Assembly: GCA_965205265.1 (NCBI GenBank)
Contig: CBDBGH010000003.1
Span: forward strand, 480,001-544,000
Source: Alphaproteobacteria bacterium
GTDB taxonomy: Bacteria > Pseudomonadota > Alphaproteobacteria > Bin95
Direction of reading: 5' to 3'
DNA length: 64,000 nucleotides
The notes under the pieces are model-generated. The model was not told the DNA's origin and made no database searches. It saw nothing but the letters and a program-made list of their open reading frames with translations. Of this stretch, positions 29,827-41,290 are shown piece by piece; positions within the stretch are counted from its first letter, which is position 1; every line of letters begins with the position of its first letter. A program made the position numbers and the translations under genes.

Positions 29827-30309
29827 TCACTTGCCGTTCGCCTTCTTCCAGGCGGCGATTTCCGCCTTCAGCTCATCGTATTCCTCGCAGCCGAGCAGGC
29901 ATATGCGGTCCAGCTCCGCCAGGTGCTTCTCCGCGCCCGCAAGGTCTCCGAGCTGCAGGCGGAGTTCGCCCGCATATTCATGCGCGCCCTTGTGGTCGGG
30001 GTCGAGGAAGAGCGCGCGGGCATAGGCCTTCTGCGCCTGTTTGTAGCGGCCGAGCTCGCGGTTGGCGTAGCCGAGCCAGTTGAAGGCGTCGGCGCTGGTG
30101 CGGTTCTTCTCGATATGGACCTCCAGGTCGGCGACCGCTTCCTCGTATTTGCCGGCCTCGATCTTCTTCTCAATGGCGGCCAGCGGGCCGGACTTGTCCC
30201 CGTTGCCGCCGCTGCCGCTGCCGAGAGCGAAGGCCGTTCCCGCCATGCACAGCATCGCGGCCGCCAGTGCCCATCTGCCCAACATGCGCCTTCTCCCCGG
30301 ATGTGCCAT
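29827..30309 (-). CDS. secreted tetratricopeptide repeat protein
   Basis: Signal peptide; ADAFNWLGYANRELG, DPDHKGAHEYAGEL, C...CEEY. Confidence 0.85.
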   Translation of the reverse strand: MAHPGRRRMLGRWALAAAMLCMAGTAFALGSGSGGNGDKSGPLAAIEKKIEAGKYEEAVADLEVHIEKNRTSADAFNWLGYANRELGRYKQAQKAYARALFLDPDHKGAHEYAGELRLQLGDLAGAEKHLAELDRICLLGCEEYDELKAEIAAWKKANGK

Positions 30310-30393
30310 CCTTCTGCGATCTAGAGTTAGGCGGCCGGCGGCCCCGCATCAAGCGGCGTGTTGGCCGGCCCCGGAACGAAGGGGGGATGGCGG

Positions 30394-31533
30394 ATGCCGC
30401 TCTCAGGCGTGCGCGTCGTCGAACTCGCGCAGATCATCGCCGGCCCCGTCGTCGGGCAGGTGCTGGCGGAGCTGGGCGCCGACGTCATCAAGGTCGAGCG
30501 CCCCGAGGGTGACGAGTCGCGCCGCTGGACGCCGCCGGTCTGGTTCGGCGCAGCACCCACCTTCCACGGCGTCAACCGCTCCAAGCGGTCCGTGTCGCTG
30601 GACCTGATGACGGAGGATGGCCGCGCGGGGCTGCTGAAGCTGGTGCGCGGCGCCGATGTGTTCGTGCAGAACCTCCGGCCCGGCGTCACGGCGAAGCTCG
30701 GCCTCGGCCCGGCGGACCTGCTGCGCGAGAACCCGCGGCTGGTCTATTGCGACATGGGCGCCTTCGGCCACAAGGGGCCGAAGCGGCTCGACCCCGGCTT
30801 CGAGGTCCTGTTCCAGGCGTTCTCCGGGCTGATGGACAATACGGGCGACCCGGACGGGCAGCCGATGCGCCTGGGGGCGGCGGTCTGCGACCTCGGCACC
30901 GGCCTCTGGACGGCGCTCGGCGCGCTGGCGGGCCTGCGCCAGCGGGAGACGACGGGCAAGGGCGTCGTCGTCAACACCTCGCTGCTCGAAACGGCGATGT
31001 TCCTGCTGACCACGCAATTCGTCTCCCACAAGGCGACCGGAAAGCGGCCCGTGCGCCACCCGACCGGCAGCCCCCGCGTGGTCGTGTTCGAGGCGTTCGA
31101 CGCCGCCGACGGGCGCATCCTGATTACCGCAGCGACGGACCGGCTCTTCAAGCGGCTCGGGCTGGCGCTCGGCCGCAGCGACTGGGCCGAGAGCCCGGCA
31201 TTCGAGGGCAATGCCGCGCGCATGGCGCGGCACGGCGAGATCGTGCGCGACCTCCGGGCGGTGCTGGCGGCGGGCCGCGTGCGGGAATGGATGGAGGTCT
31301 TCGAGGCTGCGGGCGTTCCGGCCTCGCCCATCAACAATCTGGCGGACGCGCTCGAGGAGCCGCAGGTGCGGGCGCTCGACATGGTCGTCGATGTGCCGGA
31401 GCGCGACGGCATGCAGGCGCTGGCGCTGCCGATCTCCTTCGACAGCCGGCGCCCGGCGATCCGCGCGCCGGCGCCCGGCCTCGGCGCGGACAACGCGCTC
31501 CTGGACCTCGACGACCCCTGGTCCGGCGCTTGA
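30394..31533 (+). CDS. CaiB/BaiF CoA-transferase
   Basis: PLSGVRVVEL, LAELGADVIKVERP, NRSKRS, QNLRPG. Confidence 0.92.
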   Translation: MPLSGVRVVELAQIIAGPVVGQVLAELGADVIKVERPEGDESRRWTPPVWFGAAPTFHGVNRSKRSVSLDLMTEDGRAGLLKLVRGADVFVQNLRPGVTAKLGLGPADLLRENPRLVYCDMGAFGHKGPKRLDPGFEVLFQAFSGLMDNTGDPDGQPMRLGAAVCDLGTGLWTALGALAGLRQRETTGKGVVVNTSLLETAMFLLTTQFVSHKATGKRPVRHPTGSPRVVVFEAFDAADGRILITAATDRLFKRLGLALGRSDWAESPAFEGNAARMARHGEIVRDLRAVLAAGRVREWMEVFEAAGVPASPINNLADALEEPQVRALDMVVDVPERDGMQALALPISFDSRRPAIRAPAPGLGADNALLDLDDPWSGA

Positions 31534-31558
31534 CAGCGGCGGGAGGCGAGCCTAGACG
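31530..31558 (+). promoter_or_regulatory. sigma70 promoter of tRNA-Val
   Basis: TTGACA-N17-TAGACG ending 12 nt before the tRNA. Confidence 0.6.
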
Positions 31559-31570
31559 ACCCGTCTTTCC

Positions 31571-31645
31571 GGGCGCGTAGCTCAGCGGGAGAGCACTGTC
31601 TTCACACGGCAGGGGTCGCTGGTTCAAACCCAGCCGCGCCCACCA
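31571..31645 (+). tRNA. tRNA-Val(CAC)
   Basis: Acceptor stem GGGCGCG/CGCGCCC-A-CCA; D arm GCTC/GAGC; anticodon arm CTGTC-TTCACAC-GGCAG; T loop GGTTCAAA. Confidence 0.96.
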
Positions 31646-31671
31646 TCCACCCTGTTGCAGGACCCGGACCC

Positions 31672-31827
31672 ATGCGCAAACGGAGGCCGCCGCCGAAACG
31701 GCGCAACCCGATGGCCCGCATGGTGCGCACCCTGCGCCCGCAACGGGTCCGGAACCGCAAGGCCTACACACGCAAGGGGCGCCGCAAGGCGCCCGGTTTC
31801 GTTCCGGACCCCGCCGCGCCGGAGTGA
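31672..31827 (+). CDS. small basic protein, putative ArfA-like ribosome rescue factor (not in ORF track)
   Basis: MRKRRPPPKRRNPMARMVRTLRPQRVRNRKAYTRKGRRKAPGFVPDPAAPE; AGGA upstream; internal hairpins before the stop. Confidence 0.6.
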   Translation: MRKRRPPPKRRNPMARMVRTLRPQRVRNRKAYTRKGRRKAPGFVPDPAAPE

Positions 31828-31896
31828 CGATGCGGCGCGTCTCTGCGGCGTTCGGGGCGTAGCGCCGGCGCCTGCTTTGGGCCAGTCTGCCGGGTC

Positions 31897-32937
31897 ATGG
31901 ACCTGCATCTCTTCATCGGCAACGAGCATCCCCCCGACGCCGATATGGGCGGGAAGATGGCTGAGCATGTCGAGCAGTTGCGCCTCGCCCGCCAGGGCGG
32001 CTTCGAGGGCGTCGCCATCGGCAACCACCTCTCCTACGGCGACACCGCCTGGTTCCCGCCGCTGGAGACCCTGCTCCATCTCGCGCCCGAGGCCGGGGAC
32101 ATGCAGCTCGCCACCTGCATGCTCATCCTGCCGCTCTACCATCCCTTCCAGATCGCCGAGCAGGCGGCGCTGCTGGATGCGGTATCCGGCGGCAGGTTCA
32201 CGCTCGGCGTGGCGCCCGGCTGGCAGCGGGACGAATTCGAGTTGATGGGCCTCGATTTCGGGCGCCGGATCGGCCGCTACCTGGAAGGGGTCGATTTGGT
32301 CCGCCGGCTGTTCACGGAGGAGGCGGTGAACTTCGCCGGCAGGCATTTCACCGCGGAGGACCTGACCCTTGCGCTCAGGCCCGCGCGCCGGCCCCGGCCG
32401 CCCATGTGGTTCGGCGGCAGCGTCGATGCGGCGGTGGAGCGGGCCGGCCGGCTGGCCGACACGCGCCTCGGCGACAGCTGGGTCGCCTCCTCGCATCTGG
32501 TGGGCGATGTCGTCAGGCGCCAGGCGGACTGCTTCCGCGAGACGCTGGAGGCGCTCGGCAAGCCCATGCCCGCCCGCTTCCCGATGCTGCGCAATATCGT
32601 CGTCGCGCCGGACCGGGAGACGGCGGTCCGCGAGGCGGGGCCGTTCCTGGAGGCGAGCTACCGGGTCTTCGACCGGTGGGGCCTGTTCCGCACCATCGGC
32701 GGCGTCGGCAAGGAAGAGCCGGATCTCGACGAGCTGCTCGCCGGGCGGGTGGTCATGGGCTCGCCGGAGGAAGTCGCGGATGCACTGCTCTCGCTGGCGG
32801 AAGCGACCGGCTGCAACCGCATCGTGACGCGCATCCAGTGGCTCGGCATGGACCAGCGGCTCGTGCTCCGCAGCATCGACTTGCTCAGCGAGCGGGTTCT
32901 GCCGATGCTCCGCAGGGAAACGCGCGGCGAAGCCTGA
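31897..32937 (+). CDS. LLM class flavin-dependent oxidoreductase
   Basis: LYHPFQIAEQAALLDAVSGGRFTLGV, PRPPMWFGG, MGSPEEV. Confidence 0.9.
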   Translation: MDLHLFIGNEHPPDADMGGKMAEHVEQLRLARQGGFEGVAIGNHLSYGDTAWFPPLETLLHLAPEAGDMQLATCMLILPLYHPFQIAEQAALLDAVSGGRFTLGVAPGWQRDEFELMGLDFGRRIGRYLEGVDLVRRLFTEEAVNFAGRHFTAEDLTLALRPARRPRPPMWFGGSVDAAVERAGRLADTRLGDSWVASSHLVGDVVRRQADCFRETLEALGKPMPARFPMLRNIVVAPDRETAVREAGPFLEASYRVFDRWGLFRTIGGVGKEEPDLDELLAGRVVMGSPEEVADALLSLAEATGCNRIVTRIQWLGMDQRLVLRSIDLLSERVLPMLRRETRGEA

Positions 32938-32950
32938 GGAAGAGGGTGCG

Positions 32951-33391
32951 ATGACGGAGATTCACAGGGGCGGCTGCCATTGCGGCAATATCCGCGTGGC
33001 CTACCGCACGGCGAAGCCCGTCGCGGAATGGCCGATCCGGGCCTGCCAGTGCAGCTTCTGCCGCAAGCACGGCGTGCGCGCGACCGGCGACCCCGACGGG
33101 CTGCTGGAGATCGCGATTGCCGACGAGGCGAAGGTGGACCGCTACCGCTTCGGCCTCGGCATCACCGACTTCCTCATCTGCCGGGCCTGCGGCGTCTATG
33201 TCTCGGCGCTGGTGGAGGAGCCGGACGGCCTGCTGGCGACCCTGATCGTCAACACGCTCGACCTGCCGCAGGACGAGTTTCCCGACCCGATCCCGGCTCA
33301 CTATGACGATGAGAACGAAGAACAGCGCCTCGCAAGACGCCGCCTGCGCTGGACGCCGGCTGCCATGGTTCCGCCGGCGGCGCCCGCCTGA
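32951..33391 (+). CDS. GFA family (aldehyde-activating) Zn protein
   Basis: GGCHCGNI, ACQCSFCRK, CRACG. Confidence 0.88.
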   Translation: MTEIHRGGCHCGNIRVAYRTAKPVAEWPIRACQCSFCRKHGVRATGDPDGLLEIAIADEAKVDRYRFGLGITDFLICRACGVYVSALVEEPDGLLATLIVNTLDLPQDEFPDPIPAHYDDENEEQRLARRRLRWTPAAMVPPAAPA

Positions 33392-33426
33392 CGACGCAAG
33401 AATCCGACTACTGGGAGGAAGTTTCC

Positions 33427-34401
33427 ATGCCGCTCGACAGCCCCGTCATCGTGGACGGCCTGATCGTTTCCGACTGGAGCCGCGAGGTCTTCGAGGAGAT
33501 GCGCGACGGCGGGCTCACCGCCGCCAATTGCACCTGCGCCGTCTGGCACAATTTCCGCGAGACGATGGACAATATCGCCGCCTGGCAGGGATATTTCCGC
33601 GACCATAGCGACATTCTGGCCCAGGCCCGCTCGGTCGCCGACATCCGCGCGGCGAAGGAGGCGGGCAGGGTCGCCATCTTCCTCGGCTGGCAGAACAGCT
33701 ATCCCATCGAGGACCGGGTGGACTACCTGCCGCTCTTCCACGATCTCGGCGTGCGCGTGATCCAGCTCACCTACAACACGCAGAACCTCGTCGGCTCCGG
33801 CTGCTGGGAGAGCCGGGACAGCGGCCTCTCGGATTTCGGGCGCGACGTGATCGACGAGATGAACCGCCTCGGCATGCTGGTCGATCTCAGCCATGTCGGC
33901 GACGGGACGAGCCGCGACGCCATCCTGCATTCGAAGCAGCCGGTGGCCTACACGCACTGCGCGCCCAACGCGCTCTACGACCATCCGCGCAACAAGCCGG
34001 ACGAGATGCTGAAGCTGATCTCCGACCGGGGCGGCTTCACCGGCGTCGTCGCCTACACGCCCTTCATGGCGCAGCAGGGCGAGGCAACGGTGGACGACGT
34101 GGTGGCGCTGCTCGACCACACCATCCGCGTGGCGGGGGAGGAGAACGTCGGCATCGGCACCGACTTCACCCAGGGCCACGGCGTCGGCTTCTTCGAATAT
34201 CTGCGCTCCGACAAGGGCCGCGGCCGCGCGCTCTCCGCGCCCATGGCCAACCGCCCGCCCAATCCGAAGGGCCTCGACGGCATGCGCGACTACCCGAACC
34301 TGATCGCTGCCATGGACCGCGCCGGCTGGCCGGACGCGCGGATCGAAAAGGTCGCCGGAGAAAACTGGCTGCGGTTTCTGGGGGAGGTGTGGCGGGGCTA
34401 G
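33427..34401 (+). CDS. membrane dipeptidase (M19) family protein
   Basis: GVRVIQLTYN, MNRLGMLVDLSH, HPRNKPD, GIGTDF, GENWLR. Confidence 0.9.
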   Translation: MPLDSPVIVDGLIVSDWSREVFEEMRDGGLTAANCTCAVWHNFRETMDNIAAWQGYFRDHSDILAQARSVADIRAAKEAGRVAIFLGWQNSYPIEDRVDYLPLFHDLGVRVIQLTYNTQNLVGSGCWESRDSGLSDFGRDVIDEMNRLGMLVDLSHVGDGTSRDAILHSKQPVAYTHCAPNALYDHPRNKPDEMLKLISDRGGFTGVVAYTPFMAQQGEATVDDVVALLDHTIRVAGEENVGIGTDFTQGHGVGFFEYLRSDKGRGRALSAPMANRPPNPKGLDGMRDYPNLIAAMDRAGWPDARIEKVAGENWLRFLGEVWRG

Positions 34402-40738: not shown

Positions 40739-41290
40739 CCTCCGACAAGCTCAGGACAGGCTCCTCCGTCATACCCGGACTTGTTCCGGGTATCTCTTCC
40801 CGCTGCTTCCGCCGGGCGGCCGTATGGATACCCGGAACAAGTCCATTGCTGTCCGGTTCAGGATTTGCGGGCAGGGCGCATGGCTTGGATTCAACCGGGT
40901 TTCGAGGGGTTCGGCGGGATCGGGACCCGGATCGACGCCCGGCGGCCCGGCCCCCAAGTCGTCATGCCCGACCCCCATATCGTCATGCCCGGACTTGTTC
41001 CGGGCATCTCCCTCCACCGCTTCTCCCGGGGCGGCCGTATGGATACCCGGAACAAGTCCGGGTATGACGAAAGAGCCTGCCCTGAGCCTGCCGAAGGGGG
41101 GCGTTCGAGCCTCACGGGCAAGGGGCGGATCGCAGACGCCGCGCGCCCCCGAAACCCCCGGCGGACCCCCGTTCAGCCTCACCCAATGGCTGAACCGGAC
41201 AGCAATGGACTTGTTCCGGGCATCTCCCTCGGGGGCCATGGCGGCGGCGAAAATGGATGCCCGGAACAAGTCCGGGCATGACGAAGGGGG
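40739..41290. repeat. nested cluster of family A REP dimers, a second IR pair and a MITE-like element
   Basis: GTCAT(A/G)CCCGGACTTGTTCCGGG(T/C)ATC arms and their inverses; CTCCGACAAGCTCAGGACAGGCTC vs GAGCCTGCCCTGAGCCTGCCGAAG. Confidence 0.85.
40845..41206. mobile_element. MITE-like non-autonomous element with perfect 17-bp terminal IRs
   Basis: ATTGCTGTCCGGTTCAG (40845-40861) / CTGAACCGGACAGCAAT (41190-41206); left ~105 bp repeated at 10606-10710. Confidence 0.65.

Follow-up and report, generated by a model that had tools for sequence, protein, structure and literature searches.

What is encoded directly behind a valine transfer RNA (tRNA) gene in an uncultured alphaproteobacterium, and why would its reading frame carry a terminator-like hairpin ahead of its own stop codon? 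The locus that raises this question is an open reading frame (ORF) of 51 codons (by the ORF list) for a very basic, candidate ArfA-like protein, at positions 31672-31827 of a 64,000-nucleotide (nt) stretch of DNA (assembly GCA_965205265.1, contig CBDBGH010000003.1, positions 480,001 to 544,000); the whole of this stretch is referred to here as the window, and all features of the locus lie on its plus strand. We propose, with a probability of roughly 60%, that the ORF encodes a divergent ribosome-rescue factor of the ArfA lineage, made from a messenger RNA (mRNA) without a stop codon and thereby placed under the control of transfer-messenger RNA (tmRNA). The functional parts of this proposal, namely ribosome binding, recruitment of release factor 2 (RF2), control by tmRNA and the position of transcript ends, we infer from sequence comparison.

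The ORF is a genuine gene under coding selection. The initial annotation had described a 51-residue, very basic ORF after tRNA-Val, and it is found exactly there, with 19 of its 51 residues lysine or arginine and its start 26 nt past the end of tRNA-Val(CAC). A six-frame search of 41 related genomes with the single protein as query was positive in 14 of the 16 other genomes of the same uncultured alphaproteobacterial genus, which makes 15 of 17 with its own genome counted, and this single-protein query gave no match to the ORF in 8 genomes from two further genera of the taxonomic family. A search for more loci with the orthologue alignment returned 7, each a duplicate of one already counted. 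Three weak extra matches (L016, L017 and L018) were considered as paralogues and rejected as arginine- and proline-rich chance frames. Beyond these genomes, a search of 5.8 billion proteins matched 15 unnamed proteins of 49-89 residues, and an NCBIfam scan of the ORF returned zero family matches. The orthologue alignment delimits a conserved coding core of codons 1-41 (31672-31794) that holds the motifs RNPMAR, LRPQRV and RKAYTRKGRRK. Across these codons in 13 collinear orthologues, 16 third positions are variable, as compared with 6 first and 6 second positions. For codons 21-35 of the same orthologues, pairwise diversity is 0.010, 0.000 and 0.181 at codon positions 1, 2 and 3, respectively, and the encoded amino acids are invariant. 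The homologues and the coding conservation that were looked for are thus both present, the latter as variation biased towards third positions.

The second defining feature of the locus is the hairpin GGGCGCC-GCAA-GGCGCCC, which the initial annotation placed ahead of the stop codon and which a terminator scan locates at 31777-31794. It consists of seven G-C pairs closed by a GCAA loop, encodes residues G36-P41, and is followed at 31795-31803 (codons 42-44) by the T-rich tract GGTTTCGTT, from the same scan, where the transcript is predicted to end. Hairpin and GGTTTCGTT together form the sole terminator-like site in 31000-32400 according to a consensus scan (1 found, 0.4 expected from shuffles). 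Across the 15 orthologues 98.1% of the cells of the stem are paired, all seven pairs are intact in 13, and 12 keep at least five T in nine bases of the tract. Third-position diversity in the hairpin codons 36-41 is 0.051, 3.5-fold less than the 0.181 of codons 21-35, which fits a constraint at the RNA level added to the coding one.

Beyond the hairpin the pattern of selection changes. The tail (31804-31827, codons 45-51 plus the stop codon, TGA at 31825-31827) appears unconstrained, with diversity of 0.397, 0.158 and 0.242 at the three codon positions and no codon pattern. In the two most divergent orthologues core and hairpin are kept and the frames run on to 58 and 151 codons. By the alignment, then, coding constraint stops at the hairpin, as had been predicted for a message of this kind: diversity in the tail is patternless and the stop positions of divergent orthologues differ. 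The ORF and its inner hairpin exceed what chance would give. The minimum-energy fold of 31730-31870 as a whole is not unusually stable (z = -0.96; 30 of 200 shuffles were equally stable).

Two known systems share this layout. In arfA, a stem-loop leads to premature termination or RNase III cleavage, as described in PMC8012679; the same source describes brfA as having a rho-independent terminator before its stop codon, giving a stop-less mRNA under tmRNA control whose product acts with RF2. Judged on sequence, the locus has both an in-frame stem-loop of the ArfA type, expected to give a stop-less mRNA, and a BrfA-type terminator ahead of the stop codon. The likeness to BrfA of Bacillus subtilis is one of design alone. 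Both factors are described there as specific to RF2 from their own species (PMC8012679). Whether BrfA and ArfA are themselves related is judged differently in the two sources at hand, one giving them a probably unrelated origin (PMC8012679) and the other calling them homologous at 21.5% identity (PMC11633108).

The relation of the ORF to ArfA becomes visible through the wider family to which it belongs. From 1.84 billion representatives, a profile built from the genus orthologues only retrieved 54 proteins with an E of 1e-3 or lower; these relatives are 35-119 residues long and share a common core of R-N-P-x-A, then L-R-P, then K-x-Y-x-R-K-G-R. Compared by hhalign with an alignment of 29 ArfA genes from a 301-genome sample of the phylum, the wider family (a 58-row alignment) matched over 40 columns with an E of 2.1e-4, and a conserved N, an L-[RF]-x-Q-R-V block and a Y-x-R-K-G block fall in register between the two. 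A profile search of the entire Protein Data Bank (PDB) with the wider family gave 8 matches at E <= 10, the top six of which are ArfA chains (best E 0.012) from ribosome complexes. Six family members score 11.9-20 bits on a hidden Markov model (HMM) built from beta- and gammaproteobacterial ArfA only, and each of these scores is reached by 0 or 1 of 500 composition-matched shuffles. After removal of the 24 rows visible to the ArfA HMM (P < 1e-3), the remaining 34 score 15.1 in hhalign, a value that 2 of 200 column shuffles reach.

Profile comparison with ArfA, proposed as a check on the initial annotation, therefore gave a divided answer: the wider family matches ArfA, modestly, and the ORF by itself does not. 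Profile methods and intermediate sequences nonetheless support homology, and we consider it likely that the ORF is a derived relative of ArfA that has lost the G-K-G insert. In the corresponding alignment, R-K-A-Y-T-R-K-G-R-R-K of the ORF would stand against K-G-K-G-S-Y-x-R-K-x-K of ArfA with a three-residue deletion of G-K-G. ArfA (YhdL of Escherichia coli; a gamma- and betaproteobacterial protein, PF03889) resembles the ORF product in being small and basic and in the succession N-x-A...L-[FR]-x-Q-R-V...K-x-Y-x-R-K-G-[KR]; it likewise has a stem-loop within its frame, and the ORF, like ArfA, occurs alongside tmRNA and RF2. The ORF differs in lying under every Pfam ArfA threshold, in lacking a hydrophobic C-terminal tail, in having RNPMAR where ArfA has D-N-A, in its position so close behind a tRNA gene, and in a hairpin that resembles an intrinsic terminator and not a long RNase III substrate.

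Additional support comes from genes that bridge the two groups. The sole Pfam match of the ORF is to DUF7230 (E 0.017, 15.7 bits), a family without an assigned function that is not named in the literature searched. We take the Pfam gathering cut-offs as thresholds, 25.5 bits for ArfA (PF03889) and 27 bits for DUF7230 (PF23876). At E <= 0.01, DUF7230 matches 35 rows of the 58-row alignment and ArfA matches 1; a scan of 28 alphaproteobacterial members gave 20 matches to DUF7230 at E <= 0.05, of which six exceed the cut-off, and 5 to ArfA, of which one does (L082, 27.3 bits). The ORF thus shares one sequence family with proteins over the DUF7230 threshold, and the nearest ESM Atlas clusters carry DUF7230 as well; a search for DUF7230 at the level of the genome gave no match at E <= 1. 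Two members, L063 and L076, match both DUF7230 and ArfA, which suggests that the two Pfam families are one lineage. On this evidence DUF7230 and ArfA are probably of a single lineage.

The sister genus g2, of the same taxonomic family, provides the closest bridge. Its ArfA genes L090 and L091 encode proteins of 46 residues that reach 35.0 and 32.0 bits, respectively, on Pfam ArfA, and these start with the R-N-P-[MA]-A-R of the ORF type and retain the classical KKGKG[SA]-[FY]. The own-genus profile gives both 10.8 bits; of 1000 shuffles, 1 scores as high for L090 and 0 for L091. These genes and those of six other alphaproteobacterial ArfA genomes are like the ORF in a K-x-R-N-P-x-A-R start, in an in-frame hairpin and T-run just before the stop codon (in the sister genus, a hairpin of 12-13 base pairs whose T-run ends just before the stop) and in the absence of ArfB from the genome. 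Unlike the ORF, the sister-genus genes keep KKGKG[SA]-[FY], pass the Pfam cut-off and have no adjacent tRNA gene. Bridging sequences and a sister-genus ArfA with the same N-terminal motif therefore lend support to the divergent ArfA-like factor that the initial annotation had suggested.

The family is spread across the class. In a sample of 401 evenly sampled alphaproteobacterial genomes from 307 genera, the family profile matches 38 genomes and 30 genera. Pfam ArfA passes its cut-off in 7 of the 401, and in six of these the family profile finds the same gene; in the phylum sample, the family profile finds one gene in an ArfA-positive genome (G290), and this gene is arfA.

Does the stop-less design recur outside the genus? 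A fold-based scan of 30 family loci in 30 genomes, with the rule that a hairpin of at most -12 kcal/mol folding free energy must abut a T-run, indicates that it does. In 13 of the 30 loci the stop codon lies at least 60 nt past the conserved tyrosine codon, and 9 of those 13 have an in-frame hairpin and T-run that starts 9-63 nt past it, in sequences unrelated to one another. The density of such sites in flanking DNA predicts 2.19 instead of 9 (Poisson P 4.6e-4), and at a looser threshold shuffles yield a mean of 1.17 loci and a maximum of 4. Just outside the rule fall the other sampled species of the genus itself, with four T, and another locus with a -24 kcal hairpin and no T-run. The mean folding-energy profile is not used as support; its dip past the tyrosine codon is equalled near the start codon. 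The stop-less design is thus frequent, not universal, in the family, and the stop-less mRNA first read from this one locus gains support from distant members, in which in-frame terminators of unrelated sequence occupy the same place. If these terminators did arise repeatedly and independently, selection would favour the stop-less design itself.

Members that lack an in-frame terminator (L055, L059, L062, L067, L069, L073 and L074) tend to have a short acidic tail with many aspartate and glutamate residues. Such a tail may offer another means by which the basic peptide is limited or tuned.

The partners that an ArfA-type factor would need are encoded in the genome, which is 98.98% complete: alpha-type tmRNA by two genes and RF2 by another two, with RF1 present as well. 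ArfB, the other candidate back-up, is not found over its cut-off in this genome, where three sub-threshold matches are release factors. Across the genus the ORF is present in 15 of 17 genomes and ArfB in 0 of 17; genus g2 has Pfam-grade ArfA in 3 of 4 genomes (G017, G021 and G023) and ArfB in 0 of 4; genus g3 has the ORF in 0 of 4 (by the single-protein query; the family profile was not run) and ArfB in 3 of 4. Over the class sample, ArfB passes its cut-off in 124 of 401 genomes, made up of 3 of the 38 carriers of the family and 121 of the 363 non-carriers (Fisher P 7e-4; by genus, 3 of 30 vs 90 of 277, P 0.011), with the P values overstated since related genomes are not independent and the ArfB-positive rows include the unpublished genomes G361 and G546. 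A predicted complex of ORF residues 1-44, made with the family alignment, and the genome's own RF2 gave a median of 0.22 relative to a mark of 0.32, and carries no weight either way.

The inventory includes two further observations. The tmRNA genes, at G000:C3:5292672-5292972 (+) and G000:C3:4192813-4193110 (-), are two-piece genes outside the window, with RF01849 scores of 239.5 and 236.6 bits. The two, about 90% alike, are not the same in the part that encodes the tag, and may specify two distinct degradation tags. The RF2 paralogues, L019 (G000:C3 ~2270224) and L021 (G000:C3 ~5228626), also outside the window, are 69% identical, and the first has the canonical frameshift site CTT TGA C, whereas the second reads CTT TAG C (UAG, which RF2 does not read).

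How would the ORF be transcribed? The tRNA-Val gene (anticodon CAC, CCA encoded) occupies 31571-31645 and is the only tRNA that ARAGORN finds in the window. It is separated from the ORF by a leader of 26 nt (31646-31671) in which a reading of the sequence shows two purine-rich boxes, AGGA and CGGA; AGGAGG occurs there in the two most divergent orthologues. Upstream lies a putative sigma-70-type promoter at 31530-31558, with TTGACA at 31530-31535, a 17-nt spacer and TAGACG at 31553-31558. Both boxes recur in the orthologues with an intact tRNA, the most divergent one included; a stricter consensus promoter scan listed no promoter. In 11 of the 15 orthologous loci the ORF directly follows this tRNA, and the consensus scan found no terminator-like site between the two, the in-frame hairpin being the first downstream of the tRNA. 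Because there is no terminator between tRNA and ORF and TTGACA-17-TAGACG recurs upstream, co-transcription of the two is plausible. A 728-nt contig from an RNA library of a relative (run X1) spans 31599-31960; a contig shows neither a single transcript nor its 3' end, and RNA libraries may hold DNA. No contig of run X24 aligned to the locus.

We therefore hypothesize the following course of events. Transcription would start at the tRNA-Val promoter, or in some genomes within an inserted element upstream, and proceed through the tRNA into the ORF. The in-frame intrinsic terminator (31777-31794 and its T-tract) would end most transcripts, leaving a message without a stop codon, and ribosomes would stall at its 3' end after about 43-44 codons. 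As long as tmRNA-SmpB capacity is to spare, the stalled product would be tagged and degraded. Once tmRNA is saturated, the untagged basic peptide would build up; its C-terminal basic motif could then enter other stalled ribosomes by their empty mRNA channel, and RF2 would be brought in there and the nascent peptide freed.

Several results weigh against this proposal. First, the direct comparisons of the ORF with ArfA are negative. Pfam ArfA has no match to the ORF at E <= 10 and none in the whole genome at E <= 1, and the genus-only profile has a non-significant hhalign probability of 0.3% (E 0.22) to the ArfA alignment. On the ArfA-only HMM the ORF scores 0.7 bits, which 43 of 500 shuffles reach, and it is absent among the 588 matches listed when that HMM is run on the 92,026 six-frame ORFs of the genome; once four bridging sequences are added to the HMM, it takes rank 46 with an E of 57. 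Its 15.7 bits on DUF7230 are likewise under the 27-bit cut-off. The protein lacks the G-K-G of the ArfA KGKGSY and has L-R-P where ArfA has L-F-R. Second, the RNA design is not uniform. The inner hairpin has no covariation, five of its seven pairs being invariant and its stem overlying conserved codons; the T-tract is interrupted and weak; one orthologue (L013) keeps the ORF with a mismatched hairpin and no T-tract; and in 17 of the 30 family loci the frame closes at an ordinary early stop, with no terminator inside it. Third, in 4 of the 15 orthologues inserted DNA lies between the ORF and the tRNA promoter, and transcription of the ORF there must begin elsewhere, or not occur at all. Finally, complementarity with ArfB is partial, in that 242 of the 363 non-carriers likewise lack ArfB.

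The most probable alternative takes the ORF product as a small basic, DUF7230-like protein that binds ribosomes or nucleic acids in some other role, the hairpin as a plain terminator of the tRNA-Val/ORF unit whose overlap with the unconstrained 3' end is fortuitous, and the likeness to ArfA as one of short basic motifs without a common function. The missing direct match to ArfA, together with a best library match to a family of unknown function, is what such a protein would lead one to expect, as are the ordinary stops in more than half of the family loci and a hairpin without covariation. We nevertheless regard it as rather unlikely. Against it stand bridging sequences that beat composition-matched shuffles on ArfA, the best six PDB chains, all of them ArfA, a Pfam-grade ArfA of the sister genus that has the same N-terminal motif, unrelated in-frame terminators that recur at the same place, and carriers that rarely have ArfB.

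A divergent ArfA-type rescue factor also has to be set against what lies downstream. A luciferase-like monooxygenase gene starts at 31897, 70 nt past the ORF, and the ORF and its terminator could in principle be a leader peptide and attenuator controlling it; gene order is kept in 13 of the 15 orthologous loci, and the RNA-library contig of the relative covers both the ORF and the start of the monooxygenase gene, again without implying a single transcript. This explanation is very improbable. In the two most divergent orthologues another gene lies downstream, yet ORF, hairpin and tRNA are kept, and a basic sequence of 41 residues under strong purifying selection, with relatives in many contexts, is more conserved than leader peptides normally are. 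Least probable of all is a non-coding origin, as a 3' trailer of the tRNA or the flank of an attachment site joined to a tRNA terminator: although tRNA-Val is an integration hot spot in the genus and chance ORFs abound in this high-GC DNA (35 ORFs of at least 30 residues overlap 30000-33500), it is contradicted by third-position variation around the invariant amino acids of codons 21-35, by protein relatives at E <= 1e-3 among 1.84 billion, and by a repeated attachment segment that ends within the tRNA, outside the ORF.

The attachment segments come from the loci with inserted DNA. In L002, L003, L011 and L013 what stands before the ORF is no more than the 3'-terminal ~48 nt of the tRNA (window 31598-31645); the complete tRNA is found 10.1 kilobases (kb) off in G015 (G015:C1:3897692-3907889) and 6.8 kb off in G006, and G012 has two partial copies. 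These partial copies look like the attL/attR-like footprint of integrated elements, with tRNA-Val(CAC) as an integration hot spot of the genus.

Adjacency to a tRNA was considered as a trait of the family and rejected: a tRNA lies within ~1.5 kb in 2 of 28 distant loci, adjacent in none, and the sister-genus loci have none. In those two distant loci, L065 and L073, it is a tRNA-Val (GAC and CAC) 0.9-1.3 kb upstream on the same strand, which may be coincidence. A possible parallel to the arrangement, and a lead only, is tpr, a small, protamine-like, very basic micro-ORF behind the tRNA in the tyrT operon of E. coli.

Returning to the rescue factor, its placement in Alphaproteobacteria would be new. 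ArfA is placed in gamma- and some betaproteobacteria in the accounts of PMC4235212 and PMC8012679, and Table 1 of a survey from 2024, which covered over 15,000 genomes, gives arfA in 0 of 2,376 alphaproteobacterial genomes (PMC11633108). Since these surveys hold no alphaproteobacterial ArfA, Alphaproteobacteria that lack ArfB have been left without a known back-up to tmRNA. What appears new here is the presence of ArfA-type genes in the class, the link between DUF7230 and ArfA and the tRNA-linked version without GKG; the proposed mechanism is of a known kind. The wider ArfA-related family (38 of 401 genomes) is partly filed as DUF7230 and found mostly in genomes without ArfB. If its activity is as proposed, a domain of unknown function would gain a function, the range of RF2-dependent rescue would widen, and the ability of some lineages to do without ArfB would be explained. 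More tentatively, and with greater odds against it than for it, DUF7230 and the lineage of the ORF could form a large, unrecognised branch of ArfA across Alphaproteobacteria and other Pseudomonadota, one that serves as back-up rescue in many ArfB-less lineages, has repeatedly acquired in-frame terminators and, by capture into a tRNA-Val unit, ties its supply to growth rate and tmRNA capacity.

One element of the initial annotation fared less well. It had enclosed the inner hairpin in an outer inverted repeat, and a perfect 11-base-pair (bp) repeat is indeed present before the stop codon, with its 5' arm GGGTCCGGAAC at 31745-31755 and its 3' arm GTTCCGGACCC at 31801-31811 as read from the sequence; that it is a functional part of the locus is doubtful for both arms. 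Only 7 of the 15 orthologues preserve the outer helix whole, disruptions at 5 of its 11 pairs go uncompensated, and its covariation score is matched by 336 of 500 shuffles. Repeats of this size are common by chance: perfect inverted repeats of 11 bp or longer whose arms are 3-60 apart number 12 in the window, as compared with 4.0 +/- 2.0 in shuffles. The minimum-energy fold of 31730-31870 holds both the inner and the outer helix. Given the frequent breaks, the lack of covariation and the chance-common size, we rejected the view that the outer repeat is a functional helix or belongs to an RNase III substrate, and its role is unproven. Elsewhere in the window, three of the perfect repeats of at least 11 bp follow one another ~215 nt apart at 40777-41263 (40777/40834, 40988/41052 and 41207/41263), and may represent a repeated element.

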